Part shown: positions 5,271-54,265 of the stretch, one piece after another
How the letters are laid out: each line of letters starts with the position of its first letter
Numbering within the stretch: position 1 is the first letter of the stretch
NCBI GenBank assembly: GCA_964502145.1
Contig: CAZCVI010000009.1
Location: 73,438 to 137,437, forward strand
Source of the DNA: an uncultured Clostridia bacterium
GTDB lineage: Bacteria > Acidobacteriota > Aminicenantia > UBA2199
Length of the DNA: 64,000 nucleotides
Reading direction: 5' to 3'
Translations under genes and position numbers: made by a program
Notes under the pieces: model-generated
Told to the model about the DNA's origin: nothing
The model's input: the letters and a program-made list of their open reading frames with translations, nothing else
The model's database searches: none

Positions 5271-6488
5271 ATGACGCAATTTATAAATTATACAGACGAC
5301 CAGCTAAAGTCGCTATTAGATGATCTCGAAGCAGACAATGCGGAGCGTAAAGAGAGTTGGAGCGACGATGCCAAGGACAAAGGCCGACAGGCGGTGTGTG
5401 CTTTTGCCAATGATCTTCCCAATTACCAAAAACCGGGAGTCCTTTTTGTAGGTGCCAAGGATGATGGCACTCCTTCAGGTTTAGAGATCAGCGATAAATT
5501 ATTACAGACTTTGGCGGATATCAAAACCGACGGACAGACTTTACCACCACCCACTATTATCGTTCAAAAACGGAAACTAAAAAACAAGGACATGGCCGTG
5601 GTGTTTGTGCTACCTGCTGATACTCCACCCGTTCGTTACAAGGGTAGAGTCTGGATTCGCACAGGTCCCAGGCGTGGCATTGCTACCGCACAGGATGAGC
5701 GTATTTTAAATGAAAAGAGACGATTTAAGGATAAATATTTCGATAGTGCGACAGTGCCAGGAACATCCCTCTATGACCTGAACCGCTTGCAATTCGAACA
5801 GGAATTTCTCCCCAATGCTTTTGCAGTGGATATTTTGGAAGCAAACCAACGCTCTTACGAGGAACGACTGGCATCACTTAAAATGATTGAATCTGTGGAT
5901 AATCCCATACCTACGATATTGGGTTTATTGGTAATCGGGAATAGACCACGTGATTTTCTTCCAAGTGCATATGTGCAATTTTTAAGAATTAATGGCGTGG
6001 GATTGGCTGACCCGATCGTCGATTCTGAAGAGATTGATGGAACAATAGGGCAAATCATCAGGAAGCTTGACGAAAAAATGACCTCACATAATCGTATTGC
6101 CGTGGACATCACTTCCGCCTCCCTGGAACGAAGAAATGCAGACTATCCACTCGTTGCCCTGCAACAACTGACACGAAACGCCTTAATGCATCGTACCTTT
6201 GAGGGCACAAATGCTCCAGTCAGGGTATATTGGTTTAATGACCGCATCGAAATATTCAATCCCGGTGGCCCATACGGAGAAGTAACGGCTGAAAATTTTG
6301 GGCACCCGGGAATAACCGACTATCGCAATCGAAACTTGGCCGACGCCATGAAAGTATCCGGTTTTGTGCAACGATTTGGCGTGGGTATTTCTATCGCTAA
6401 TAGAGAGCTGGAGAAGAACGGTAATCCCCCCTTCAGTTTCGATATTCAACCAACGGTTATTCTTATTACTGTAAGGAAGTCAAAATGA
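5271..6488 (+). CDS. AlbA_2 (Schlafen-like putative DNA-binding) + HATPase_c_4 domain protein, the family often annotated 'RecG-like putative transcriptional regulator'
   Basis: N-terminus VCAFANDLPN...GVLFVGAKDDGTPSGL...RYKGRVWIRTGP matches AlbA_2. C-terminus LTRNALMHRTF...IEIFNPGGPYG matches HATPase_c_4. Confidence 0.7.
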   Translation: MTQFINYTDDQLKSLLDDLEADNAERKESWSDDAKDKGRQAVCAFANDLPNYQKPGVLFVGAKDDGTPSGLEISDKLLQTLADIKTDGQTLPPPTIIVQKRKLKNKDMAVVFVLPADTPPVRYKGRVWIRTGPRRGIATAQDERILNEKRRFKDKYFDSATVPGTSLYDLNRLQFEQEFLPNAFAVDILEANQRSYEERLASLKMIESVDNPIPTILGLLVIGNRPRDFLPSAYVQFLRINGVGLADPIVDSEEIDGTIGQIIRKLDEKMTSHNRIAVDITSASLERRNADYPLVALQQLTRNALMHRTFEGTNAPVRVYWFNDRIEIFNPGGPYGEVTAENFGHPGITDYRNRNLADAMKVSGFVQRFGVGISIANRELEKNGNPPFSFDIQPTVILITVRKSK

Positions 6489-7483
6489 GTATCCCAGTTC
6501 TGACCTTTTTTAATAATAAAGGTGGTGTTGGAAAAACATCACTCATATACCATTTAACATACATGTTTGCTGAACTGGGTAAACGAGTATTAGCCGTGGA
6601 TCTAGATTCACAAGCCAACCTAACGGCTGCTTTTCTTGATGAAGAAGAGTTGGAAGCACTCTGGGAGGGAAATGAACCAGATTCCACTATATCTAAAATT
6701 ATCTCGCCACTGACCGGTGTCGGGGATATCCTAGAACCAAAACCCAGACATATTACGCATCATATTTATTTAATCCCAGGCGATGTAGCCTTGTCTGGAT
6801 TTGAAGAAACTTTAGCTGGCGAATGGCCGAATAGTATGGGGGATACCCTGCTATACCGTCCATTCAGAATTCTTACCGCTTTTTGGCAAGTGATGCAATT
6901 AGGCGCAAAAAAAATAAATGCAGATATTATATTGGTTGATATTGGTCCCTATCTCGGTGCGATTAACAGGTCAGTTTTGATTGCTACCGATTACGTTATT
7001 ATTCCACTGGGTACCGACCTTTTTTCGATTGAGGGGTTGAAAAATCTTGGTCCAATATTACGGAGTTGGCGTAACTTGTGGAAAAAGAGGTTGGACAACT
7101 GGGTTAAGCCTGAATTTATTCTACCACAGGGCAAAATGTCGCCTATTGGCTATGTATGCCAACAACATGGTGTTCGGTTAAGCCGCCCAGTTAAAGCCTA
7201 TGACAAATGGATAAACAAAATTCCCGATGTGTATCGTGAAAGCATTCTTGGAGAAAGTCCAAACGGGATGACACCTGCCGAAGACCCTCTCTGCTTAGCC
7301 ACTATCAAACATTTCCGTAGTCTTATCCCAATGGCCCAAGAACAACGGAAACCAGTGTTTAAATTGACTCAAGCTGATGGCGCTATTGGCAGCCATGCAC
7401 AATCTGTTAATAATGCTTATTCAGATTTCAAAATCCTGGCCAAAAAAATCGCGGACATCATTCATTTGGAAGGCTGCCAGTAA
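6485..7483 (+). CDS. ParA/Soj/MinD-family P-loop ATPase
   Basis: Deviant Walker A FNNKGGVGKTS, A' motif AVDLDSQANLT, Walker B ILVDIGP. The start overlaps the upstream stop (ATGA). Confidence 0.8.
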   Translation: MSIPVLTFFNNKGGVGKTSLIYHLTYMFAELGKRVLAVDLDSQANLTAAFLDEEELEALWEGNEPDSTISKIISPLTGVGDILEPKPRHITHHIYLIPGDVALSGFEETLAGEWPNSMGDTLLYRPFRILTAFWQVMQLGAKKINADIILVDIGPYLGAINRSVLIATDYVIIPLGTDLFSIEGLKNLGPILRSWRNLWKKRLDNWVKPEFILPQGKMSPIGYVCQQHGVRLSRPVKAYDKWINKIPDVYRESILGESPNGMTPAEDPLCLATIKHFRSLIPMAQEQRKPVFKLTQADGAIGSHAQSVNNAYSDFKILAKKIADIIHLEGCQ

Positions 7484-7647
7484 TGGTAATTGGCGGTGGA
7501 TTTAGGACTAAGAGAGTCCTTGATACAACGCTTATTTCCCGATTTTATTATTAATTTGATAATTACTGCCGCATTGCTTGCATTATTGCTGCAATTGATT
7601 TACAATTCTACTATGAATAGGATAACGTTTGCCGCTAGGAGTCTTCA

Positions 7648-9396
7648 ATGAGTTGGGCCAAAACATTTCAAATCAAAACTAATGGAACGGTCTTGGGCGT
7701 CATCGCCGAGTCAGACACTTGGTTCATCCGACAAGATAAAGAGTTACTCGCGTATAACCCCGATGAGAACCGCGTGGTCTGGCGTCTACAAATGCAAAGA
7801 GATAGTTTGCAAATGGATAAAACCCTGTTACGAACAGATGATCTCTTGATTGCCACCCTACACGCCGACCAAAAAACTGACCGGGCTTGGCTCTTTGCCG
7901 TGGACTCGGAATCCGGTCACATGGTTTGGTCCCAACGGGTAGCTGAACAATCCCTGCAAGGAAATGGCAATATCCTGGGCGAAAACCACTGGCATATCCT
8001 CTTTACCCAGATAAAAGACCACCACGCCGACCTGCTCCTGCTGGACAAATCAAACGGTGAAATTATTAAATCTCTCCCCCTGTCGCAAATTCCTAAAGGA
8101 AGCGCCTATACAGAACACTATTATTATTATCATTCCTTGCACGATGCCCTGCGCCGCGTTGATCTGGAAAGCGGCGAAGAGTCCATGATACTGGTTGAAA
8201 AAACCGCTGGACTCGCCCTGGTTTATGACCAACTCCTATGTATTTCTGGCAATGCCCTCTTCTCCTTGGACGCATCATCCAGCCAAATCATAGGGGAAAT
8301 TGATCTAAATGGAAAAAAAGCCAAAAAAATTATTCCTTTTGATAACAAAGATCACGTCCTGGTTTTTTTTGAAGGACCCCGTTCTTCTGTAGCCCTGTAT
8401 GATTTCAAAAGAAACCAGCCTATATGGGAGACAACCGTGCCCCTCCATTCAACTGCCTTTTGGACCGGACACGAAGTGATCGTAAAGGACCAGACATGCA
8501 AACGAAATTTTTCCATTGACGGCCAAAGCGGGGCAGTTAGCCCGATCACCACCCATTCTTTTGCCAAACTGGCCTATTTTAGCAATGGCAAGTGGTTTGA
8601 TTACGCCTTTCACAATCTCGCCGTGTATGAATGGACAGATTTGGAAGCGCCGGAAATAGATATGCCCGATCCCGATGAAAGCGAAACCGAAGTGATGAAT
8701 ATCGAAGATTTTATCCCCGGTTTCTTGGGCCATGAGGATGAACAAAAAGACCACTTGCTACGAGTACACAATCAAACCCTGGTAGATGGCAATTTTGAAT
8801 TGTTGTTCCAAGAGATCGCCAGATGTTTCCATATTCCCGTGGTTCATGACAAGGTGAAAAAATACCTGGTGGATACCTGCAACATAGAATACATTGACGG
8901 GCCATTGAGTCTTGAAGGCGCCAAAAAGAGTATTGGTCAATTCGGCAGTTACAAAAAGTTATTCGGTTTTGGACCCGAGGAAAAATTATATCCCGCCTTG
9001 CAAGTCGGTTCAGGTCGTAGCAATGCGTTTCTTCTGGCCCTGGAAAGCGGGAATATTATTTCTGGTCACCAGAGTGTCCTGTATGGCGAATATGCCAGTG
9101 AAGAGTGGGAACTCGCTGGAAAGGAATTGGTCAGTTTTAATCAACAGTTGGAAGAGAAGTACAGTTGTTTTGATATCCAGCAACTCATCGCCTTCCAAGC
9201 GTCGTTCGAAGACTATAAAGACCATTATGATATCCCCCTGGAAGAATTGTACCGCCAAGCTGGCTGTACTCTGACCCATTCCTACCCACAGCTCTTACGC
9301 AACCTCAATGCCGAGCCCATGGAATTCCTCACTGGCTACATGGATGAAGCAGAAACGGAAGCCATGATCAAGAGCTTCTTTCAACCCGAAGAGTAA
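7648..9396 (+). CDS. Hypothetical cytoplasmic protein with an N-terminal PQQ/BamB-like beta-propeller and an uncharacterised C-terminal domain
   Basis: 582-aa ORF with repeated motifs of the type NRVVWRLQM / SGHMVWSQ. No signal peptide. Confidence 0.5.
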   Translation: MSWAKTFQIKTNGTVLGVIAESDTWFIRQDKELLAYNPDENRVVWRLQMQRDSLQMDKTLLRTDDLLIATLHADQKTDRAWLFAVDSESGHMVWSQRVAEQSLQGNGNILGENHWHILFTQIKDHHADLLLLDKSNGEIIKSLPLSQIPKGSAYTEHYYYYHSLHDALRRVDLESGEESMILVEKTAGLALVYDQLLCISGNALFSLDASSSQIIGEIDLNGKKAKKIIPFDNKDHVLVFFEGPRSSVALYDFKRNQPIWETTVPLHSTAFWTGHEVIVKDQTCKRNFSIDGQSGAVSPITTHSFAKLAYFSNGKWFDYAFHNLAVYEWTDLEAPEIDMPDPDESETEVMNIEDFIPGFLGHEDEQKDHLLRVHNQTLVDGNFELLFQEIARCFHIPVVHDKVKKYLVDTCNIEYIDGPLSLEGAKKSIGQFGSYKKLFGFGPEEKLYPALQVGSGRSNAFLLALESGNIISGHQSVLYGEYASEEWELAGKELVSFNQQLEEKYSCFDIQQLIAFQASFEDYKDHYDIPLEELYRQAGCTLTHSYPQLLRNLNAEPMEFLTGYMDEAETEAMIKSFFQPEE

Positions 9397-17973: not shown

Positions 17974-18582
17974 ATGAGCTACCAATACGATGTCTTTTTA
18001 AGTTACAACCGAAAGTTCCCCCACGGTCAGTGGGTAGATGAGATTTTTTATCCATTGTTTGTTCCCTACCTGGAAGATGCCCTGAATCAAAAAGTATTGA
18101 TATTCAAAGACACCGAAGAGATTAATACCGGTTCTGCTTGGCCCCATAGATTAAAGAATGCAGCCGTCCATTCGAAATGTATGGTATCCATTTTTTCGCC
18201 CGCTTATTTTCTTTCGGAATGGTGCATGAAAGAATTTGCCATCATGTTTTACCGGCAAAAGCAATTGGGATATTTAACACAAAAAAACCCTGATGGATTG
18301 ATTGTTCCCGTTAAAATCTTCGATGGTGAGCATTTCCCTGAGTATGCAAATTTTTTGCAGATGTTAGATTGTCGGGATTTATTTCTTGTCGGCGAGGGAA
18401 TGAAGCAGGCAAAATCTTATATGGATTTGCAAACACGCTTACAGAGATGGGTCTACAATGTAGCTAAAGTTATAAAAAACGCCCCGGAATGGGACAACCA
18501 ATGGCTGGAGAAGCATTGGTTGGAACCACTGGCGGCTAAAAAAAACTGGGCAGCAATACAAGAGGAGAAACCAATCCTATGA
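17974..18582 (+). CDS. Stand-alone TIR-domain protein (ThsB-like)
   Basis: YDVFLSYNR start. Conserved S-x-WC-x-x-E region SPAYFLSEWCMKEF, with the Glu in the position of the TIR NADase catalytic residue. Confidence 0.8.
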   Translation: MSYQYDVFLSYNRKFPHGQWVDEIFYPLFVPYLEDALNQKVLIFKDTEEINTGSAWPHRLKNAAVHSKCMVSIFSPAYFLSEWCMKEFAIMFYRQKQLGYLTQKNPDGLIVPVKIFDGEHFPEYANFLQMLDCRDLFLVGEGMKQAKSYMDLQTRLQRWVYNVAKVIKNAPEWDNQWLEKHWLEPLAAKKNWAAIQEEKPIL

Positions 18583-20048
18583 GTCAAGTCATAACTTTTT
18601 ATTCTTTTAAAGGCGGTGTTGGTCGTACCATGGCGTTGGCTAACGTGGCAGTTCTATTGTCGCAATGGGGATATAAAACGTTAGTTGTTGACTGGGACCT
18701 GGAAGCACCTGGGCTGGAAAATTTCTTCAAAGAATATATCAATTTAGAAAAGATTTCCAAAAGAAAAGGCCTGATCGAATTGTTAAATCCCAAAGATGCA
18801 ACTGAAAAAAAATTTACCTGGAAGGACTTGCGGATTCCAGTATTCATTCCTGAAGGTCAGGAGCCCATTCACCTGCTCACTGCTGGCGACCGCAGCAACG
18901 GCTATTACGACAGAGTGAGAAATTTTGATATTGATCTGTTCTATAAAAAGCAGGACGGCGGGCAAAAGATTGAACAACTGCGGGAGGAATGGAAAGCAGA
19001 ATACGATTTCGTTCTGGTGGATAGCCGTACCGGTATTACCGACAATGGAGGTATTTGTACTATTCAACTCCCAGACATCCTTGTCTTGCTTTTTACCGCC
19101 ACGGACATAGGACTAAATGGGATATTGGATGTCGCTCAGCGGGCAGTTAAAGCCCAACAGTCACTCGCTTTCGAACGCTTTAAATTGCTAGCCCTGCCCG
19201 TTCCCACCCGCCTTGAAACCGCTCTTGAATTTAAACTATCGCAAGAGTGGATGAATAAATTTTCAAAAGAATTGGAGCCCCTCTATTATGATTGGCTACC
19301 AATCAATGTGGACCGTCTGCAATTCGTTGAATTAACTAAGATTCCTTCTGTTCCATATTTTAATTTCGGAGAAAAACTTCCGGTCATTGAACAGGGCGTC
19401 AACGATCCGGCTGGCCTGGGATATGCATACGAGACTATCACCGCCCTTCTGGCAAACAACTTCCAATCCATCCAAGACCTGATGAATAACCGTGATGCAT
19501 TCATCCATATGGCTGCCAGTAACCGGGGTACAATAATCAAAAGGAAATCCAATCCTAAAGTAACCAATCAACCAGTTAAAATTTTTATTTCCTATTCCCA
19601 TAAAGAAAAAGCGATTAAAAGTATACTGGAATATTATCTGGAAATACTTAAAACAAAAGGATTGGCCACCTTTTGGTCAGATGAAAAACTTTTGCCGGGT
19701 ATGAAGTGGTCTGAAGAGATTGAAAAGAATATCTCTGACTCCCAGGTTTTCTTAATTTTATTAAGTAAAAACTATCTCTCCCCTACCACTTCAGCGGAAT
19801 TGCAGCAAATAGAAAATTTTGGAAAACAAAAGAATATCCTGATAATTCCAATTGTACTCGACGATTCCACTTGGTATCAGGACACCTTTTTAAAAGATCG
19901 TTTTTCAATATGGATGGATTACGCGACAATAAATACCCATGTAAACTGGGAGGAGGCTCTTTTTGAAGTTGTTCAACAGATTGAAAAATCAATTCTTTTA
20001 TATCAACAACAAATCAATGAAACAAAACCTATAGGAGAAGTGAAATGA
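18579..20048 (+). CDS. Fusion protein: N-terminal MinD/ParA-like (SIMIBI) NTPase with a deviant Walker A, C-terminal TIR domain
   Basis: N-terminus FYSFKGGVGRTMALAN (P-loop Lys replaced by Arg), A' VVDWDLEAPGL, Walker B LVDSRTG. C-terminus VKIFISYSHKEK...FLILLSKNYLSPTTSAELQQ, typical of the bacterial TIR_2 family. ATGA overlap with the upstream TIR gene. Confidence 0.75.
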   Translation: MSQVITFYSFKGGVGRTMALANVAVLLSQWGYKTLVVDWDLEAPGLENFFKEYINLEKISKRKGLIELLNPKDATEKKFTWKDLRIPVFIPEGQEPIHLLTAGDRSNGYYDRVRNFDIDLFYKKQDGGQKIEQLREEWKAEYDFVLVDSRTGITDNGGICTIQLPDILVLLFTATDIGLNGILDVAQRAVKAQQSLAFERFKLLALPVPTRLETALEFKLSQEWMNKFSKELEPLYYDWLPINVDRLQFVELTKIPSVPYFNFGEKLPVIEQGVNDPAGLGYAYETITALLANNFQSIQDLMNNRDAFIHMAASNRGTIIKRKSNPKVTNQPVKIFISYSHKEKAIKSILEYYLEILKTKGLATFWSDEKLLPGMKWSEEIEKNISDSQVFLILLSKNYLSPTTSAELQQIENFGKQKNILIIPIVLDDSTWYQDTFLKDRFSIWMDYATINTHVNWEEALFEVVQQIEKSILLYQQQINETKPIGEVK

Positions 20049-21960: not shown

Positions 21961-22553
21961 CACTGTCGAGATGGACACTATACCGTGAAGCCAAGCAGGA
22001 AAGTTAACGGAGGAGCAGATACTCCGATTTTTTTGACGTACCTGTGACCGAAGTGACCGCTTTTCTGAGCGCGCAACTGGCAGAAGGAAATCCTTTTTAT
22101 GTCAGTTCTATCTTATGTTCCCAATTCCCAGACAAAGATTTAACCACTTTGGAAGGATTGGTGCGCACCCTGGAATTTGAAACCTTAAACGATAACGGGG
22201 AGATCAAATCTACCTGGATGACTTATGTGAATTCGGCCTTCAACCAAGTTAACAATAAAATTTCCAAGAATATTGTGTTGTATTTATGTAAAAATAGAGA
22301 CCATGAGGTCACCCGCAAAGAGTTATTGGAAAAATTACATCTGGATATGACGGATGGCGAATTAGAGTTCAAACTCAAAGCTCTAATAAAAGCCGATATT
22401 ATCCTCCAAGGAGCGACCAACTACGATTACCACGGGAAGTGGAAGACTTCCTTCGTGAAAAAAGTATCGCCTATACGGAAGATGAACGCTGGTTGGAGCT
22501 TTAAAGGTTTTTTAACCACAGATTACACAGATTCAAATGATTTCCCAGATTAA
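21961..22553 (+). pseudogene. Decayed paralog of the Arch_ATPase/DUF234 gene at 48996-50756: N-terminal P-loop half missing, internal deletion, frameshifts
   Basis: RYSDFFDVPVTEVTAFLSAQLAEGNPFYVSSIL...LYLCKNRDHEVTRKELLEKLHLDMTDGELEFKLKALIKADII aligns with KYSGFFNVPVTEETAYLIAQMAEGSPFYISSIL...LYLCQNRDHEVTRQELLDNLALDMTDRELELKLKALVRADII of the intact gene. After NYDYHG the frame jumps to ...SIAYTEDERWLEL*, which matches the intact C-terminus GIAYSEDERWLEN*. Confidence 0.75.
22516..22552. repeat. Half-copy of the CACAGATTA repeat element
   Basis: CCACAGATTACACAGATTCAAATGATTTCCCAGATTA is nearly identical to the left arm of the palindrome at 50834-50933. Confidence 0.6.
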
Positions 22554-45957: not shown

Positions 45958-46650
45958 CAAAACAATCTGTGGGTGAATTCTGGTTCGGGTAACTTCCCCA
46001 ATGCATGATAACACAGTATTTCCGCAGCCGTATAGGTTCTAAATCCATAAGCTTTTCTGAATGTCAATTTCAGCTTGTTATTTAACCCTTCAACAGCCCC
46101 CGACGACAACTCTTTTTTTGCCTTAAACCAATTCAATATAAGCGGTTTATGCCTATGTATTTTTTTTGCATTATCTTAAATAGGTCCGATCTTTGAATAC
46201 ATGACTTTTTTCATCCAGCGATTGATAAACCATTCCGCCCAATAAGGAGAGACGTAATCCCATAGACGTTGAAAGTCTTCTTTAAGAAGATAGCTCTTCA
46301 CAGTTTTTAGGTTCTGCTTAAGGAGTTCGGCTAATTTCTGTTCCTGTGATTCCGATAGATTTTCCAGGTTCTTCAAAAAAATTCACTTGCACTTCCTCAG
46401 AACTGGTTGTTTGCCATCTTTCTTCATTTTTGTAATTTCCTGGTTCCTGACTTTATTAATGGCTTTGCTTATCTGAGCCATGATATAGAAACGGTCGAGA
46501 ACATGAAGTGCGTTTCCTGCATTTTTTGCGATGACATTAATATATGCTTCCCCATATCACTGCAAATAAACTTCAGCTTCTTAATCCTCTCCTCTTGGAA
46601 GAAATTGAGATATCTTTATGTCCCATTTCAATCAAATTCATTTTGCGGCC
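45958..46650 (-). mobile_element. ISL3-family transposase remnant (C-terminal ~230 aa, frameshifted, N-terminus missing)
   Basis: Minus-strand translations (spread over more than one frame) give ...WKAYINVIAKNAGNALHVLDRFHIMAQISKAINKVRNQE..., ...QRLWDYVSPYWAEWFINRW..., ...SSGAVEGLNNKLKLTFRKAYGFRTYTAAEILCYHALGKLPEPEFTHRLF*, the conserved ISL3 DDE and C-terminal motifs. Confidence 0.65.
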
Positions 46651-46687: not shown

Positions 46688-46909
46688 TCAATCAAGATTT
46701 TCCTGGGTTTTTGCTTTGCTATTGCTACTATTGGATTCGGAAAATATCTCGCTGGCTTTTTCAAGAAAAATCTGTTTCCATTTGGTCAGTTGGGTCGGAC
46801 GCACCCCGTGTTTGCTGGCTATTTCTGAAAGGGTCTGGGTGCCGCCAAGCATTTCCAGAACCATTTTGGTCTTGAACTCTGCGCTATGTTTGCGTCTGCT
46901 TTTACTCAT
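46688..46909 (-). pseudogene. IS3-family transposase OrfA (HTH_Tnp_1) fragment, truncated before the leucine-zipper region
   Basis: RRKHSAEFKTKMVLEML.GTQTLSEIASKHGVRPTQLTKWKQIF matches HTH_Tnp_1. An A8 run at ~46670 resembles the IS3 A-AAA-AAG slippery site, but the downstream frame is not OrfB-like. Confidence 0.6.
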
Positions 46910-47085: not shown

Positions 47086-47508
47086 TCAAAGGAGCCGGGA
47101 AACCGACACGCGGAGCCGTTGAATTATCAATTGATCGGTGCTGGGATAAATTACAAACCTTTTGCCCATACAAAATTCATAATCCTCCAACCACAACCCT
47201 GATATTCGAATCCTTGAAACATAGGTGTCCTTTCTGAATTTTGAGTTACTGGCCCGGAATAGCCAACCTACCCTATATAGCCTTGGATATGAATTCAATA
47301 ATGATTTCATATCCGGCTCTGGGGGATATATGGTTGGAAATATTTTAATCTGCAAATCCGGGAAATCAAGCAATAGACGCCGCCAGATAATGGATATCTT
47401 ATGAAAGGACAACTCTTCAAAATCGCCTTCTAACAGGGTTGTGCATGTCTCTAACAATAATAACAACACTGCTCTCTTTAATTTTTCATTCAACTTCTTC
47501 GTGCTCAC
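47086..47508 (-). CDS. Hypothetical protein (140 aa), no recognisable domain
   Basis: Open reading frame only. Lies between the IS remnants and the next gene; it could be non-coding. Confidence 0.25.
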   Translation of the reverse strand: MSTKKLNEKLKRAVLLLLLETCTTLLEGDFEELSFHKISIIWRRLLLDFPDLQIKIFPTIYPPEPDMKSLLNSYPRLYRVGWLFRASNSKFRKDTYVSRIRISGLWLEDYEFCMGKRFVIYPSTDQLIIQRLRVSVSRLL

Positions 47509-47646: not shown

Positions 47647-47663
47647 GTATGAGAGGTGAAAAC

Positions 47664-48755
47664 ATGTCTACTAACAATTCGAACGATAAAAAACAAGGCC
47701 CTGGATACCAGGAGAAGTCCAATCGTATCAGTGTCTGGAGTGAGTTCATACGCTCATTCAGTAAATTTGTTTGGCTGATCGTGGCGATCATTGTACTGGT
47801 TACATTGGGGAAAATCTTTGTCTTTAAATCCGACAAAGGACTCCTGGAACATAAATTCGTCAAGAAACCGGTAGTACAGCGGGTGGATTGGAGCAAAGTC
47901 AATAAAACCATTGCCAAAACTATGACTGAAGCCAGGCTGAGCACGGAACAAATGGCTGCCAGCAAACTGGATCTATGGATTGCTGACAATATGAAACGGG
48001 TAGATGATGATTTCTTAGAATGGTATTTTGGATATTGGACCCAACAGAAACTTGGTTTAAAAAGTTTATTGGCGCAGGTATGGCACTGGGTTGACAGCGA
48101 CAGTCCGACTGCGGCAGAGAAGTTGACCATGGAAGTACAGGAGGAGTTCACCAACCGCGTGATACGTCCGCAAATCGCGCAACTGGAGATTGAGCGTATT
48201 ATCGGTGAGATTGTGGCTCACTACTCTGCTACTTTAAAAGATAAATTGAAAAATATCCCGGTGGAGTATAAAATCAGTCCTGCCGAATGGGACCGGTATA
48301 TTGGCGATATTGCGTTAATAGTTAAGAATGTTGAAGCAAATCGCAGCACGCCGCTAACCTTAAAAGCCATGGTTGGTCTCACTGCGGGTGGTACTATAAT
48401 GGTAGTCAGTACATTGCGGCCCATGATCACCAGGATTGGTGCCCGTATCTCTGCCCGTTTGGCCACAAAAACGGCGGCGCAAATGGCAGCGAAAACAGGG
48501 GGAAAAGTGGCGGCGAAAACAGGGGGAAAGTTCCTGGGTTCTATTATCGCCATCGGTATTATTATATGGGATGTATGGGACCACTACTCGACCAAAGCGA
48601 AAGCACAACCAATTCTAAGACAAAATATCCATGATTATTTGCAAGAAGTGAAACAGTCGATCTTGCACGACCCGAGTTACGGTATTATGACTATTATTTA
48701 CCAGATGGAACAGGGTATTTCAGTTGATGTGAAAACGCAAAATACAGGGACTTGA
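47664..48755 (+). CDS. Hypothetical membrane protein with N-terminal and C-terminal TM segments and an AAKTGGK repeat
   Basis: Start moved to the second ATG (MSTNNSND...), because the first ATG falls inside the predicted 5'UTR. TM helix FVWLIVAIIVLVTLGKIFVF. C-terminal repeat AAKTGGKVAAKTGGK, then LGSIIAIGIIIW. Confidence 0.55.
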   Translation: MSTNNSNDKKQGPGYQEKSNRISVWSEFIRSFSKFVWLIVAIIVLVTLGKIFVFKSDKGLLEHKFVKKPVVQRVDWSKVNKTIAKTMTEARLSTEQMAASKLDLWIADNMKRVDDDFLEWYFGYWTQQKLGLKSLLAQVWHWVDSDSPTAAEKLTMEVQEEFTNRVIRPQIAQLEIERIIGEIVAHYSATLKDKLKNIPVEYKISPAEWDRYIGDIALIVKNVEANRSTPLTLKAMVGLTAGGTIMVVSTLRPMITRIGARISARLATKTAAQMAAKTGGKVAAKTGGKFLGSIIAIGIIIWDVWDHYSTKAKAQPILRQNIHDYLQEVKQSILHDPSYGIMTIIYQMEQGISVDVKTQNTGT

Positions 48756-48995
48756 TGGAAACGAACAGATGGACCAGTAATCGGCGGCCATTTCTGCTAT
48801 TTTATGGGTGTCGCAAAAGAGGAAGATGAGTTTCTCTTCATGTTGCATGAGGTGGCGAAGGTTGCTGAAAATGGTCTTGGCTACGATTTCGGGCGAGTTT
48901 CTTGGAAGAAGAAGAAATGAGACGGGAATTAGCCACACCTATTCCCTCGAATTGAAATCAACGAATCCTGCCTGTCCCCTCTTTTTTCTATAATT

Positions 48996-50756
48996 TTAAT
49001 TTTCCAGCCAGCGTTCATCTTCGCTGTAGGCAATCCCCATTTCTTGGCAGTACTCTTCCGCTTCCCGGGTAAACCCGGCACGGGAAAAGACAAAAGGAAG
49101 CACCCGATCCAGATTTTCAAACTTTTTAAGTCTCGCCAATTTTTCCATAAAAGATACGGCTTCCTGCTTGGAAAATTTTTTAAGCTCCCGGTTCTTCACC
49201 TCTCCGATAATGGAATAATCCGTGGCAGATTTGGCACGGGCGTATATATCCACATTAAATTTATAGCCAAACTCGGTGGCACCATCATAAGACCATGCCC
49301 TTGCATAATCGCAAAAATTAAAATCCAGGGGTAAATGGAGGGTGATGGACTTCAACAGATCATTCACTTTGCGGGCCCGGTTCTTTAATAGATCCAAGAG
49401 CAAATATTCGGCAAAATACCCCTTCTGATAATTCACTTTTCCCAGGAGCTGCTTGTACTTCTGCTTTAATTTCAAAAAATCCTCGTGGTATTCCTTGGCA
49501 ATAGTATTCACATCAAAGAGATTGATCTCTTTTTCATAAACACCCCGAAACACCTTGTCAAAAATATTATCCTGCACACCGCGATAATCAAAGTTGGTTC
49601 TCCCCTTTTCAATAATATCCGCTCGTACCAATGCTTTGAGCTTTAACTCCAGCTCTCTGTCCGTCATATCCAGGGCCAAGTTATCCAGAAGTTCTTGGCG
49701 CGTCACCTCGTGGTCCCTGTTTTGGCAAAGATAGAGCACCACGTTCTTGGCGTTTCGCTCATTCACCTTATTAAAGGCAAACGCCACGTACTCCATCCAG
49801 GTGGCTTTGATTCTACCATGGTCATCCAGGGTTTCATATTCCAGGGTTTCCGTTAACCCCTGCAACGTGGTCAGGTCTTTGTGGCTGTAATTGGAGCGGA
49901 GAATGGAACTAATATAAAAAGGACTGCCTTCAGCCATTTGCGCAATCAAATAAGCCGTTTCCTCGGTAACCGGCACGTTAAAGAAGCCAGAGTATTTATA
50001 CACCATTTCCACCGCTTCGGTTTCGGGCATATTTTCAAAAGAGTGATATACAAAACGTGCGGGCAACAGGGAATTTAATTCATCCATCAGCCATCCCACC
50101 CAGCTACCGGAAATTAATAAGGGGGCGATTTTACTTTCGGCTGTGCTCAAGTACCCGCCCGCCAGATTTTTCATCAGGGTTGTCTTGGAAAAATTTTTAC
50201 TCCGATAGATCATTGCATTCATGAACTGAAACTCGTCGATCATTTGTACGATGAATTCATTCTGGTTGCTGGCGATTTTTTTGGGAGCTTCCCGAACGAT
50301 TTCCCAGAGAATACCCGTATGTTTAGAGCGAATGGCATTGGCGACATCATTTATATATATCAGTAAGTAGTCTAATTTTTCGTCTTTTGCCACTTGCCCC
50401 GCTTTTTTAAGATTACTCCGCTCATAGGATTCAATATACTGATATTTTCTTGTTTTAAAAGCAATGTACTGGTAGACAAAAGTCAGGAAGAAATCCAGAC
50501 AAAAGTCAACGATATTCATCTCAATCTCTTTGATCTCATAGTAAAAGGGAATCACGCCGTTGTTTTTGTGAAAGGTGATATTAAACAACCGTTCCATGAA
50601 AGCGGTTTTTCCCATTTTGCGGCGGGCCAGGATAGCGGAACTCTGGGATTTTCTTTCTTTGATATCGGTGATCCAATTGGAAAAAAAAGCCAGCTCTTCT
50701 TTTCTGCCGGTAAACAGGTCCGGGTTGCCAATTCGTTCTTCTTTTGCGTATTCCAT
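48996..50756 (-). CDS. Archaeal-type AAA+ ATPase (Arch_ATPase) with a C-terminal DUF234 restriction-endonuclease-like domain
   Basis: Walker A ILARRKMGKTAF. C-terminus GEVKNREL...FVFSRAGFTREAEEY is typical of DUF234. Start moved to ATG 50756 (MEYAKEE...), because the upstream part of the track ORF overlaps the palindromic repeat. Confidence 0.75.
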   Translation of the reverse strand: MEYAKEERIGNPDLFTGRKEELAFFSNWITDIKERKSQSSAILARRKMGKTAFMERLFNITFHKNNGVIPFYYEIKEIEMNIVDFCLDFFLTFVYQYIAFKTRKYQYIESYERSNLKKAGQVAKDEKLDYLLIYINDVANAIRSKHTGILWEIVREAPKKIASNQNEFIVQMIDEFQFMNAMIYRSKNFSKTTLMKNLAGGYLSTAESKIAPLLISGSWVGWLMDELNSLLPARFVYHSFENMPETEAVEMVYKYSGFFNVPVTEETAYLIAQMAEGSPFYISSILRSNYSHKDLTTLQGLTETLEYETLDDHGRIKATWMEYVAFAFNKVNERNAKNVVLYLCQNRDHEVTRQELLDNLALDMTDRELELKLKALVRADIIEKGRTNFDYRGVQDNIFDKVFRGVYEKEINLFDVNTIAKEYHEDFLKLKQKYKQLLGKVNYQKGYFAEYLLLDLLKNRARKVNDLLKSITLHLPLDFNFCDYARAWSYDGATEFGYKFNVDIYARAKSATDYSIIGEVKNRELKKFSKQEAVSFMEKLARLKKFENLDRVLPFVFSRAGFTREAEEYCQEMGIAYSEDERWLEN

Positions 50757-50833
50757 GCCTTTATTTATATCATAAATCAAAGAAAATAACAAATTCCAAA
50801 GATCACCATCCTTCCCCCGGCAATTAAAAGATA

Positions 50834-50933
50834 GTCCACAGATTACACAGATTAAAATGATTATCACAGATTTTTTTTTAAAAAACTTTTTTAATCATGT
50901 TAATCCATGGAATCTGTGTAATCTGTGGATATC
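50834..50933. repeat. Palindromic element built from CACAGATTA sub-repeats
   Basis: TCCACAGATTACACAGATTAAAATGATTATCACAGATT, a T/A loop, then AATCATGTTAATCCATGGAATCTGTGTAATCTGTGGA. Confidence 0.65.
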
Positions 50934-50934
50934 T

Positions 50935-51261
50935 TTACAGGCTTTCGCGGACTTTTCGCAACGGGTATTTGGCAGCCACCCACTTGCGCAGGAGATTAAC
51001 AGGGAAATGGTAGACCATGTTCCTTTCGGCAATAATCTCTTGGTGAACCAATGTGGTGAGGGTGTCCATCATCTCCTTGCGGGAAAAGGAGGGGGCAATC
51101 TTTTGGATATTGGAATAAATCCCTTCGACGCCAATGCCGTCGGCTTGTTTGTGGGTGAGTTCCTCGGCCATGGCGCTGAGCACGACGCGGGCGGAACTGG
51201 AGGAATCATCCCAGATGTGTTGCGAGAAATGTTCGGTGCCAGTGGCGATGATTTTATCCAC
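50935..51261 (-). CDS. Hypothetical small protein (108 aa from the first ATG; open frame extends to ~51330)
   Basis: ORF sits between the caspase-like gene and the CACAGATTA palindrome. No recognisable domain. Confidence 0.35.
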   Translation of the reverse strand: MDKIIATGTEHFSQHIWDDSSSSARVVLSAMAEELTHKQADGIGVEGIYSNIQKIAPSFSRKEMMDTLTTLVHQEIIAERNMVYHFPVNLLRKWVAAKYPLRKVRESL

Positions 51262-51368
51262 GGCATCGTCGACATCGTCGATCAGGGCATCGTTGCGTTG
51301 TTTTTTTTCGTTGAGATGGTTGACGATTAAAGTCTAATAGGATTATGATCTGATATGAACAGATATTT

Positions 51369-53801
51369 TTATTCATTATTCGAGCCAATAATAAATCGGA
51401 CTGGGCGTAGGTATGAAGGTGTTTCTTTTTTTACACCATCTTCTATATAATCAGAAAGTGAAAGTCTTGCTGTCCTGAGATCAATAAGCCAAAAAAGGTA
51501 ATTCCCTTTCATATCACCTGTCCACATTATGTATTGCGTTGGAGAAAACAATGGGTTGATATAAAGGCCTGATGCTGAATTGTGTGGTCTAACGAGAGAT
51601 GCCGCTTCTTCCAGATTTGGGTATCTCCAATCTTTATACCCCGCATAACCAGTTTGATTTAATTTGTTTAACCACGTCTCTACCTTTCTGTGGTATGTGT
51701 GAAGCAAATCGGTTTTTAAACGAGGAGATCCTGATTGATGCCACATCAATCCAGTTGAAAAGTCCGCGATTACAATATCTCCATTAATTGTTAATTGCTC
51801 AAGCTGACTGGCAGCATCTGCCTGGGAAATATCTTGAATCATGAGGATATTGAGCAACCCTTTTTCTTTCAGCATTTGCATTGCATCATCAATACTTAAT
51901 CCAATATTTAAGTAGTTTGTTCTAAGTGTTGGCGTGCAAAGGGACAATTTAAATTTTCCAGCTATAGGGTCAATGACAAAAACTTCACCCATTCTAAGAT
52001 CATACAAATCTTTAAAATATCCTTCCACTTTGAGAAGTTCTTTCCTACTGTACATTCCTTTGGCGATATCTGGACTTACTAATAGTGAATAATATCTTTT
52101 TTTCGCCTGAGAGTCCATTACGATAGTGGCATAATTTTTGGTGTCAGGGTTATAAGATAGAAGTTCAATAGTCAATCCTTCTACCGGGTATTTTATATTT
52201 CTTATTATTTCAATTTGTTCTTTGTAGGGTTTCATCAAGGATTCGCATTCATCTTCGTATTTTTTGGATAAATCCAAATCTTCTTTTTCATATTTTTCCA
52301 TAGTTTGCTGAATCTTTTCGTAATGCGCTTTTAACTTACCCTCATAATCAGATGTGGTTTCAAACTGATCTTTTGGAGGAATCGTCGTTCCTTTTAGCTT
52401 TTCTATGAGAGTATTATAGTACAATTTTGATTGGGCAAACGCTTTTTCCTTTTCAGTATAAATTGCTGATTTTATACCTTCAATTTTTTCCTCCAATTGC
52501 GCAATTTCTTTGCGTGCAGAATCAACAAACAGAACCTCCTGCTTAATATCCTTCAATTTTATCTGCTCATCGACGAATTTCTGCCGAAGTTTTTCCAATT
52601 CCTCTTCCCCAAATCTTTTTTTATTCTCCAGGTCGACTTTTTTTTGAGCTTCTTCAGCGGCCAATTTCTTTTCCTCTGCTTCAAAGAGTACTTTTCTCTC
52701 TTTTTCTTTTTGCAGTCTCTCCTGCTCCAATTGACTGGCTTTTAATTTTACCCGGAGATCTTCTTCTTTACGTTTATCCTCCCGTATTTCTTTTTCCGAT
52801 TTTAATTTAGCCGCCTCTTTTTTTTGTGCTTCAATTTCTGTGAGCTGTGATTGGAGTTTTGAGATTTCAGTTTGTACTTCTTCGTATCGGCGATCCACCC
52901 TTGGAATAAACACAAAATCTCCAAGGCCCCAAAATGTACCAAAAGCTGGCGTTTGGATATGCCCCATAGCATTTGAATCGGAAAATACTTTTTCCTTTAC
53001 AGTCACGGAAAGTTCCGAAGCCGTAATATAGTCCGAGGTGTCATTCAAAATTTGCAGGATTCGTCCCAAGAACACTGAGTGACCCAAAGGACCACCATCC
53101 AATACAGTTTCATCCTGTCCCCCGGCGGTCAGAACTTGACGGACGGTTTCTTTGGTTATTTTCTGCATGTATTTTAAATCACGTTTTGTTTCAGGGACGC
53201 TTCCCCGGGTCACCAATAATCCACTGTAGCAGGCATCAATCATAAAAAAAACATGTTTTGCAGGGATTGATTTTCCAACATCTTCCTTTAACTGGGTCAT
53301 GGAGATGTTTTTATATAATTCAGTTTTTTCGAAAGAACCATCATAGGGAACCAGAAACCCAAGTTCTCCATATTGTGAAGTGCCAGTATGCCCATGTCCT
53401 GCAAAAAAAATAAAAACAGCATCATCTGTGGTAGTTTGACTCATTTTCCCCAGAAGTGTCGACATAATTGCTTCACGCGAAGCTTCTCTGTCGTACAATG
53501 TTATAATTTCATCGAAAACAAACCGTTCTTTCAATATTTTTTCAATCCCTTTCGCGTCTTTAACGGCGTAACGAAGCTGTTGGTTCGGGGAAAGATTTTG
53601 GTATCGGTCAATGCCGATAATTACTCCATAAACCTTTTTGTATAGATTGACAATTTTCTCTTGTCCGGTCTGGTTGTCTTTTGCCAATATGCGAACCCCT
53701 CTCTGATCGGAAGGTAATTCCGACGTTTGTGCAAAAATGTCAAGGGGGCCATTCCATACTATGATCAAAAAAATAATAACAAAACTCGTAAGTGATTTCA
53801 T
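51369..53801 (-). CDS. Secreted caspase-like (peptidase C14) domain protein with a long KE-rich coiled coil and a C-terminal DUF1566 (Lcl C-terminal-like) domain
   Basis: Start set at MKSLTSFVIIFLIIV (signal peptide), which has ribosome-binding site AAGGAG. Caspase His/Cys dyad motifs FAGHGH and DACYSG. Coiled coil ~350-560. C-terminus STGLMWHQSG...GYKDWRYPNLEEAASL matches DUF1566. Confidence 0.8.
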   Translation of the reverse strand: MKSLTSFVIIFLIIVWNGPLDIFAQTSELPSDQRGVRILAKDNQTGQEKIVNLYKKVYGVIIGIDRYQNLSPNQQLRYAVKDAKGIEKILKERFVFDEIITLYDREASREAIMSTLLGKMSQTTTDDAVFIFFAGHGHTGTSQYGELGFLVPYDGSFEKTELYKNISMTQLKEDVGKSIPAKHVFFMIDACYSGLLVTRGSVPETKRDLKYMQKITKETVRQVLTAGGQDETVLDGGPLGHSVFLGRILQILNDTSDYITASELSVTVKEKVFSDSNAMGHIQTPAFGTFWGLGDFVFIPRVDRRYEEVQTEISKLQSQLTEIEAQKKEAAKLKSEKEIREDKRKEEDLRVKLKASQLEQERLQKEKERKVLFEAEEKKLAAEEAQKKVDLENKKRFGEEELEKLRQKFVDEQIKLKDIKQEVLFVDSARKEIAQLEEKIEGIKSAIYTEKEKAFAQSKLYYNTLIEKLKGTTIPPKDQFETTSDYEGKLKAHYEKIQQTMEKYEKEDLDLSKKYEDECESLMKPYKEQIEIIRNIKYPVEGLTIELLSYNPDTKNYATIVMDSQAKKRYYSLLVSPDIAKGMYSRKELLKVEGYFKDLYDLRMGEVFVIDPIAGKFKLSLCTPTLRTNYLNIGLSIDDAMQMLKEKGLLNILMIQDISQADAASQLEQLTINGDIVIADFSTGLMWHQSGSPRLKTDLLHTYHRKVETWLNKLNQTGYAGYKDWRYPNLEEAASLVRPHNSASGLYINPLFSPTQYIMWTGDMKGNYLFWLIDLRTARLSLSDYIEDGVKKETPSYLRPVRFIIGSNNE

Positions 53802-54265
53802 CCTTTTCTCCTTTTCCCGCCCGAAAAACATATCCGAACCAATGGGAATCATCTTTCTTTCTGTGTACGGATTGGTCAACGTTTTTTCTTCCGTCATGTG
53901 TTGCGTCCCTTCTTCTTTTTTTTCAATTGTTCGCCATAATTTCCTATTATACAAATATCGCGATTGATTTGCAATACCCACAAATGGATTTCAGGAAGAG
54001 ATCGTTTCTGAACCGTGATGCGTGGGATTATAGGATGACCGGGATGAAAGAATTGGAGTCTGCCAAATGGGATATTCCTGATTATTTTCGCTGTGGTTTG
54101 GAATGAATTTTCGACACACAGACCCTATCACCCTTAAAAAACCAGAATTTTTCAACTACCGTGATTGAATTTTTATGAGGCAAGACCTGGCCATTTCTTC
54201 CATGCACAAGCCACTTTTTTTCAAATCGTTGCGGACGCTATGAACGATTAGGAAGTCTTCACCAT

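Follow-up and report, generated by a model that had tools for sequence, protein, structure and literature searches.

A predicted exported caspase-like protein, fragments of NTPase genes, and an unrelated ATPase as a probable mosaic in an Aminicenantia genome

Linkage of the caspase-like and ATPase586 genes

In a 64,000-nucleotide stretch of DNA from an uncultured Clostridia bacterium (GTDB lineage Acidobacteriota; Aminicenantia; UBA2199; GenBank assembly GCA_964502145.1, contig CAZCVI010000009.1, forward-strand positions 73,438–137,437)—which whole stretch we refer to as the window—a gene for an 810-amino-acid (aa) caspase-like protein is followed by one for a 586-aa P-loop nucleoside triphosphatase (NTPase), here called ATPase586, every feature under study being on the minus strand of the window. 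The evidence makes it quite probable that independent pieces have come together here as a mosaic—a solitary caspase-lectin protein predicted to be exported, fragments of NTPase genes, and the unrelated ATPase586—and do not constitute a system; rearrangements within a decaying part of the genome would have set the two genes side by side. The first-pass annotation had considered the caspase and the NTPase/nuclease as a possible conflict pair, and had named a lack of conserved co-occurrence in other genomes as evidence against that pairing; such co-occurrence was absent in both directions. No relative of ATPase586 was found by tblastn in the 421 kb flanking the 82 loci of caspase homologues, and none of the 20 other loci with ATPase586 relatives contained a caspase, while in an Omnitrophota metagenome-assembled genome (MAG; whole-genome-shotgun prefix JBLMYT01) both families are present, on different contigs.

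The ATPase586 gene, furthermore, has a promoter of its own (50757–50792), consisting of TTGTTA at 50792–50787, a 17-nt spacer, and an extended –10 element, TG-n-TATAAA, at 50772–50764, which element ends 7 nt before the ATG at 50756. Ten ATPase586 genes share this arrangement, having TTGaTA at –35 and, 17 nt farther on, the extended –10 TGgTATAaA, which ends 6–8 nt before the ATG; the sequences farther upstream are unrelated. The same promoter was seen at equivalent positions in the loci L002–L018. A conserved promoter directly before the ATG indicates that ATPase586 is an independent transcription unit, and its position implies that the mRNA is probably leaderless or nearly so across the family.

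A conflict or defence system made up of the caspase and ATPase586 genes appears extremely improbable: the two genes are indeed on the same strand and about 600 nt apart, relatives of ATPase586 often lie near defence-type genes, and the PADLOC caspase model matches the C14 domain of the 810-aa protein; yet, in addition to the lack of co-occurrence in the 82 plus 20 loci, the unlinked families of the Omnitrophota MAG, and the separate promoter, a pseudogene fragment and a palindrome of the repetitive-extragenic-palindrome (REP) type lie between the two genes, and the caspase is predicted to be exported.

Domain structure of the caspase-like protein

The 810-aa open reading frame (ORF) first described was confirmed at 51369–53801, with the ATG at 53801 and a predicted architecture of an exported caspase-like domain, a helical stalk, and an Lcl_C domain; an identical protein is on record from four contigs. 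The N-terminus (residues 1–24; 53730–53801) resembles a signal peptide, with MKS, a hydrophobic core at residues 4–16, NGP, and IFA ahead of a Q. In the hydropathy profile of the whole protein, residues 2–26 were the sole transmembrane (TM)-like window, and all the aligned homologues have an equivalent hydrophobic start ending in (F/L)(A/S)Q, so that the signal peptide previously claimed is upheld by a single, conserved hydrophobic segment.

The Peptidase_C14 domain (residues ~57–300; 52902–53633) was recognized by Pfam PF00656 with an E of 3.7e-15 and 56.7 bits against a cut-off of 21.4. The dyad described earlier as intact proved to be so: His136 (codon 53394–53396, within FAGHGH) and Cys191 (codon 53229–53231, within DACYSG) are invariant across an alignment of 74 homologues. 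An AlphaFold2 model of the protein, with a mean predicted local distance difference test (pLDDT) score of 83 and values above 90 across most of the C14 domain, comprises a caspase-type alpha/beta domain at residues 57–300, four long helices at 302–534, a beta domain, and the C-terminal Lcl_C. With the protease domain as query, Foldseek returned the MALT1 paracaspase (1.1e-9), the Geobacter caspase homologue GSU0716 (1.3e-8), and caspase-7 (2e-7), along with caspases 8 and 3; as modelled, then, the domain has the caspase/haemoglobinase fold that defines the C14 members. The P1 specificity of meta- and orthocaspases is for Arg or Lys.

The stalk (233 residues, 302–534; 52200–52898) is 55% K/E/R/Q/D, is modelled as the four long helices just mentioned, and gave weak matches of the SMC/JetC type, which matches are typical of coiled coils; the KE-rich coiled coil of some 200 residues noted in the sequence is accordingly present. 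After a small beta-rich domain (residues ~540–625, with strands between 544 and 621; 51927–52184), for which we found neither a Pfam match nor a family assignment, the protein ends in the expected DUF1566, or Lcl_C, domain (residues 677–802; 51396–51773), which domain covers positions 2–117 of the 117 in the profile of PF07603 (E 3.7e-12; 47.0 bits vs. a cut-off of 34.9). The domain-profile comparison of the caspase protein thus places both Peptidase_C14 and Lcl_C above the Pfam gathering scores. The columns of the WRLP-type motif are kept in the homologues. A diversity-generating retroelement acting on this lectin-like head was also considered and rejected, there being no template-repeat-like copy of 51301–51900 in the whole window.

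The best-supported reading of the 810-aa protein is, by analogy, that of a Sec-exported protease-lectin. In Legionella, the protein Lcl has a trimeric stalk bearing a C-type-lectin-like head with DUF1566, whose ligands are sulphated glycans (glycosaminoglycans) (PMC11162425). By this token the protein would be exported through Sec, its helical stalk would oligomerize it, and its Lcl_C head would dock onto a glycan or a surface ligand, in which circumstance the clan-CD protease would cleave extracytoplasmic substrates close to that ligand, and the oligomerization would probably also activate the caspase-fold domain.

The family of caspase-Lcl_C proteins

The combination of domains had been described as rare, which description does not hold, since PF00656 plus PF07603 occurred in 89 of the 120 best homologues listed; in another 11 of those 120 the C14 domain was accompanied by an FGE-sulfatase head (PF03781) instead, and in a few a PDZ or TPR module was added. 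The exchange of Lcl_C for FGE-sulfatase in sister proteins fits a variable targeting module. The source names of the homologues include Omnitrophota, Syntrophales, Cloacimonetes, Geobacter/Trichlorobacter, Desulfuromonadales, and Chlorobium. A survey from 2012 had already listed metacaspase-FGE-sulfatase proteins, along with N-terminal helices that were probably signal peptides (PMC3501461).

In a full-text search of the literature pairing DUF1566 and caspase, we found no description of the caspase-DUF1566 architecture, and to our knowledge the caspase-Lcl_C family has no characterized member. The caspase protein is, in sum, a further member of a large, annotated but uncharacterized family of exported bacterial caspase homologues.

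In the loci of the two closest relatives, the caspase gene is followed by one for a distant C14 paralogue with DUF4384 (764–776 aa) and then by one for a secreted protein of 336–364 aa. These loci (L022, 5438–13864; L113, 2489–8271) have a conserved operon with one or two caspase-Lcl_C genes, the C14-DUF4384 paralogue, and the secreted protein, which last has no family assignment and shows 50% identity from one locus to the other. Lipoproteins with DUF4384 adjoin six more distant caspase homologues as well. None of these partners—the paralogue, the 336–364-aa protein, or a DUF4384 lipoprotein—is present in the window. A search of 83 loci for a conserved neighbour of the caspase yielded, apart from the DUF4384 proteins in a few loci, nothing but artefacts antisense to the coiled-coil region.

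Fragments of NTPase genes

Three stretches around the caspase and ATPase586 genes derive from NTPase genes. The first is an N-terminal remnant of 32 codons (53802–53897; MTEEKTLTNPYTERKMIPIGSDMFFGREKEKR), assigned by homology to an ATPase_2/nSTAND-like NTPase that we designate as type 1, in which remnant the native start codon of the NTPase is kept, and which is in frame with the caspase ORF and directly abuts it. The remnant was 65.5% identical over 29 aa (E 4e-9) to the N part of an NTPase whose gene is split in the locus L103 and 72.7% identical over 22 aa to P0243, an NTPase that joins both parts, while the spacing of its NPYT-x11-FFGR motif is as in the NTPase P0244. The upstream extensions of P0124 and P0126 were considered as further relatives of this fragment, but we judged the similarity too weak and did not use them.

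The second is a C-terminal remnant of about 131 codons (50935–51333), constituting the winged-helix end of a type-2 ATPase_2/AAA_22/nSTAND-like NTPase, as found by phmmer. A HMMER scan against 1.8 billion representatives matched 51330–50935 to the last ~130 residues of NTPases with E values from 2e-44 to 1e-30, the targets being either proteins of 864–1255 aa or stand-alone NTPases of ~340–385 aa. This remnant contains what had been annotated as a small unknown ORF, and an ORF does exist at 50935–51261 with its frame open to 51330; but instead of an unknown gene it is a fragment of an NTPase gene, for an in-frame TAG directly precedes the point at which the homology begins, and this point lies 23 codons ahead of the earliest start codon available. 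A homology extending upstream of any start as far as the in-frame stop identifies the small ORF as the 3' remnant of a gene. The third stretch is a middle fragment of 39 codons (48768–48884; IFSNLRHLMQHEEKLIFLFCDTHKIAEMAADYWSI) from a type-2 NTPase, which fragment in tblastn was 67–74% identical to seven full-length NTPases (E 1e-13 to 1e-15).

The fragments match P0243, P0244, P0257, and the N part in L103; of these, P0243, P0244, and the L103 N part reach 36–44 bits with Pfam ATPase_2 against a cut-off of 33.2, and the full-length relatives also match AAA_16/AAA_22/nSTAND. Because the full-length relatives pass Pfam ATPase_2, a genuine Arch_ATPase (ATPase_2) signal resides in the pseudogene fragments. 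No segment coding for the Walker A and B motifs of this NTPase family is present in the window. The pieces are arranged in the order N fragment, caspase, C fragment, palindrome, ATPase586, M fragment, which sequence is not collinear with a single gene and which would therefore require at least two NTPase copies along with several rearrangements.

We considered it quite unlikely that the small ORF at 50935–51261 encodes a functional stand-alone winged-helix protein, such as a regulator. The 131 codons have no internal stop or frameshift, the family-invariant residues (Y, F, W, and P-L..V at the C-terminus) are kept, similar short ORFs have been called in several metagenomes, and there is a weak match to a helix-turn-helix (HTH) of the HxlR type (E 0.085); however, aside from the homology that runs 23 codons past the first possible start, no Shine-Dalgarno sequence precedes the GTG at 51261, several of the short homologues are truncations at contig ends or differ in their truncation points, and the JGI gene caller picked the opposite strand. 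In that JGI annotation a 107-aa gene without a family match was placed on the plus strand at 50857–51330, antisense to the NTPase C fragment; this call is probably an error arising from a GC-rich pseudogene.

Translation start and expression of the caspase gene

Upstream of the caspase gene are the 32-codon remnant, a 369-nt spacer, and then motB. The frame of the caspase ORF opens at the GTG at 53981 (870 aa), an AAGGAG lies 6 nt ahead of the ATG at 53801, and the gene callers in four data sets chose the ATG at 53897 (842 aa). This last start would give a type II membrane protein of 842 aa, in which a signal-anchor follows a cytoplasmic tail of 32 aa stemming from the NTPase; this alternative is unlikely but carries some weight: the open frame, the concordant calls, and a promoter-like site at 53974–53946 would accommodate it, whereas the strong AAGGAG sits just before 53801, the best-aligned homologues begin at the equivalent of that Met, and the extension is homologous to the NTPase and not to the caspase family.

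The promoter-like site, TTGCAA-17-TATAAT (53946–53974; a 10/12 match), lies about 50 nt upstream of the ATG at 53897 and is suggestive, from its sequence, of a candidate promoter for a transcript of the N fragment and caspase, with the regional total of such sites being no higher than in shuffled sequences. This site and the in-frame NTPase start together suggest that the gene borrows the expression signals of the dead NTPase, from whose promoter it is probably transcribed. The GC content at third codon positions (GC3) is 0.34 in the caspase gene, 0.66 in the C fragment, and 0.52 in ATPase586, as against 0.45–0.55 in the neighbouring genes.

Nesting of the caspase gene between NTPase fragments

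The caspase ORF is separated from the flanking N and C fragments by 0 and 33 nt, respectively. A comparable arrangement was found in L103 (5755–8345; metagenome contig ERZ27247761 k141_1404209, with the same in L104), where an NTPase gene is split by a TIR_2-Inositol_P gene on the same strand (6327–7859), the N part consisting of residues 1–186 with Walker A and B and the C part being frameshifted. In P0243, a type-1 N part and a type-2 C part are joined directly. The other loci had only C fragments, with differing truncation points, beside unrelated genes. The two nested effector-type genes could be a coincidence within a fast-decaying NTPase family, or else could hint at the capture of cassettes.

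Under the latter alternative the caspase would be, or would have been, the effector of the flanking ATPase_2/nSTAND NTPase, with effector cassettes being exchanged within the NTPase scaffold, so that the nesting would be functional or mechanistic and not the result of decay. To this possibility we assign a slim chance. The tight abutment with an in-frame N fragment, the TIR_2-Inositol_P gene lying in the same orientation in L103, and the direct fusion in P0243 speak for such an exchange; but only those two nested cases were found, neither NTPase is functional—that of the window lacking Walker A and B and that of L103 having a frameshifted C part—the caspase family is otherwise never beside such NTPases (0 of 82 loci), the caspase is predicted to be exported and has other conserved partners, and the remaining C fragments adjoin unrelated genes (STAS, MNT, and restriction-modification of the MmeI type). 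Neither terminal repeats nor a target-site duplication surround the insert: in looking for transposon-like or cassette borders of the caspase ORF, we found no inverted repeats, and the best shared word was 8 nt long and AT-rich.

A broader conjecture, equally improbable in our judgment, is that effector-type genes are inserted in the same orientation between type-1 N and type-2 C parts, and that ATPase586 may represent, in bacteria of the Aminicenantes type, a new defence gene or selfish gene that stands alone. Should this be true, an undescribed process of cassette capture or exchange would be targeting this ATPase_2/nSTAND NTPase family.

ATPase586

The ATPase586 gene (48996–50756), whose start was set at MEYAKEER by its homologues, encodes 586 aa in which motifs, hhalign, and Foldseek suggest a P-loop NTPase, a winged helix, and a PD-(D/E)xK-like domain. 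The sequence includes an N-terminal NPxLFxGRxxEL motif, a Walker A (G49-K50(-T51)) and a Walker B (D174-E175) that are invariant or nearly so, and an invariant C-terminal D503/E519/K521 (D..ExK). No Pfam family matched even at E ≤ 10, and neither PF01637 nor PF03008 was among any matches; there was likewise no meaningful NCBIfam match, and no sequence match in the PDB with either the single sequence or a profile. In an hhalign comparison with a type-2 ATPase_2-type NTPase (E 4.7e-4, probability 32%), 312 collinear columns were aligned, taking in both Walker motifs, the lid, and the winged helix at the C-terminus. The Foldseek matches, all weak, were to AAA+ proteins of the RuvB/clamp-loader (RFC) kind and winged-helix regulators and, for the C-terminal domain, to the PD-(D/E)xK nucleases NucS/EndoMS, AF1548, and BstEII (E 0.004–0.08). 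The label Arch_ATPase-DUF234 given at first must accordingly be withdrawn as a statement of membership, but loosely describes the protein, which on these motifs, the profile–profile alignment, and the faint resemblance in fold may be taken as a distant ATPase_2-like P-loop protein with a PD-(D/E)xK-like domain.

The family is large, with 1337 homologues, of which the top 120 are 65–72% identical and without any Pfam domain, and is found in several copies: one MAG has at least five contigs bearing copies, and a complete Aminicenantes genome of 9.1 Mb at least two. The copies often lie at contig ends. ATPase_2-DUF234 proteins are likewise habitually multi-copy. In other loci the neighbours are type III restriction-modification genes, PemK, AAA-ATPase_like/PDDEXK_9, RT-Cas1, VapBC, and AAA_15, within variable regions rich in genes for restriction-modification, toxin-antitoxin, and CRISPR adaptation. 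No tblastn match was obtained on plasmids or phages. ATPase586 would most likely act on its own, as a nucleic-acid-directed defence gene or a selfish gene. ORFs of ~130 aa upstream of ATPase586 in L111 and L112 were tried as possible partners and rejected, since the coordinates gave no clean translation and the ORFs had no matches elsewhere.

The palindrome and the surrounding region

The palindromic repeat reported between the two genes is real. It is an imperfect, REP-like dispersed repeat (50835–50929) with the core TCCACAGATTACACAGATT; its 32-nt arms are 84% complementary and include a perfect core of 19 nt. A third copy of the core (CACAGATTACACAGATT) was found at 22517–22533, where none was expected by chance. 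This copy stands directly after a truncated and internally deleted ATPase586 paralogue on the plus strand (22017–22498; residues 254–393 at 68% identity, plus 548–585), which location fits a dispersed REP-like repeat. In view of the recurrence at 22517–22533, a reading of the palindrome as an integron attC site was rejected. The core was absent from the 18 other loci checked, and no known RNA families in Rfam (for the palindrome included) and no tRNA integration sites were found.

The section from 46 to 51.4 kb is a decaying variable region, marked by remnants of insertion sequences (IS) and a SymE-like ORF. The former lie on the minus strand at 46176–46376 and 46688–46909, as a fragment of DDE_Tnp_ISL3 and an HTH_Tnp_1 ORF; the latter, also on the minus strand (47086–47508; 140 aa), has a weak match to SymE_toxin (E 0.012). 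The gene fragments, IS remnants, truncated paralogue, and spread of GC3 mark the region as a mosaic whose DNA came from different sources. On the plus strand at 47649–48755, convergent with the ATPase gene, is a gene for a predicted membrane protein of 368 aa with an alanine- and lysine-rich repeat near its C-terminus, for which we found no family match and no homologue in any of the compared loci. Two kilobases upstream of the truncated ATPase586 copy, a plus-strand gene (18579–20048) encodes a 489-aa protein with a ParA/MinD-like P-loop (AAA_31/CbiA) and a C-terminal TIR_2 (E 7.6e-17), which architecture resembles that of an effector.

Discussion

Several points weigh against the interpretation of the region as a mosaic of unrelated pieces. 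Only 18 of the 82 caspase loci had at least 2.5 kb on both sides, so that a weak or distant linkage could escape. In L103 a TIR gene is nested within the same NTPase family, a hint that such nesting may be more than chance. The model of the caspase protein is that of a monomer, and we infer its export, oligomerization, and ligand binding; if, moreover, translation started at the ATG at 53897, the hydrophobic segment would anchor the protein in the membrane instead of being cleaved off as a signal. For ATPase586, the mean pLDDT of the model was 67.5, with a poor N-terminal half and a value of ~90 in the C-terminal domain, while its Foldseek matches had E values of 0.004 or above.

Taken as found, the locus matters little in itself, being one more member of a family next to an ATPase-nuclease whose proposed link with it is not real. 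It does exemplify how the remains of pseudogenes may pass for small unknown ORFs and give the impression of operons that are not there. ATPase586, with over 1300 members, no domain annotation, and several copies per genome, points to a gap in the protein-family libraries. The exported caspases, which have DUF4384 partners and C-type-lectin-like heads that are exchangeable between Lcl_C and FGE-sulfatase, for their part make up a coherent family deserving of biochemical study, and such an exported family would argue for extracytoplasmic roles—and not for cell suicide—for many bacterial caspases.

Comparison with known systems

The likeness of ATPase586 to proteins with ATPase_2 (PF01637) and DUF234 (PF03008) lies in its NPxLFxGRxxEL motif, Walker A and B, winged helix, and the D..ExK residues of a C-terminal domain whose weak fold matches are PD-(D/E)xK-like; but ATPase586 differs in having no Pfam match, and its kinship to ATPase_2-type NTPases appears through profile–profile comparison alone.

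The best NCBIfam match of the caspase protein was caspase_w_EACC1 (NF047832), at 58.6 bits against a cut-off of 140. In the two-gene, membrane-associated EACC1-caspase conflict system (Kaur et al., 2020; PMC7159879), an N-terminal caspase is likewise joined to a variable C-terminal module, and both proteins would act near the membrane, as is here predicted. The caspase gene of the window, however, lacks a 5' EACC1 gene and instead has the NTPase remnant and motB upstream, and no upstream partner was conserved across the 83 caspase loci. We therefore reject membership in that system on two counts, the score and the missing 5' neighbour, a single-TM EACC1 protein.

With the metacaspase-like, or orthocaspase, C14 homologues (GSU0716; PDB 3BIJ), the likeness consists in the caspase fold and the His/Cys dyad. 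The metacaspase-FGE-sulfatase proteins resemble ours in that their N-terminus carries a hydrophobic segment interpreted as a signal peptide, and the FGE-sulfatase head recurs in the sister proteins (PMC3501461); the difference lies in the Lcl_C/DUF1566 head of the present protein, which head is set off by the stalk of ~230 residues and the beta domain.

As to the Lcl of Legionella pneumophila, the resemblance extends to export and an elongated stalk read as oligomerizing, both of which are predictions for the caspase protein, and to a C-terminal DUF1566 head; the trimeric glycan-binding head is known from Lcl alone. The two proteins differ in the stalk, a collagen triple helix in Lcl and an alpha-helical coiled coil in the caspase protein, and in the protease that the latter carries at its N-terminus.

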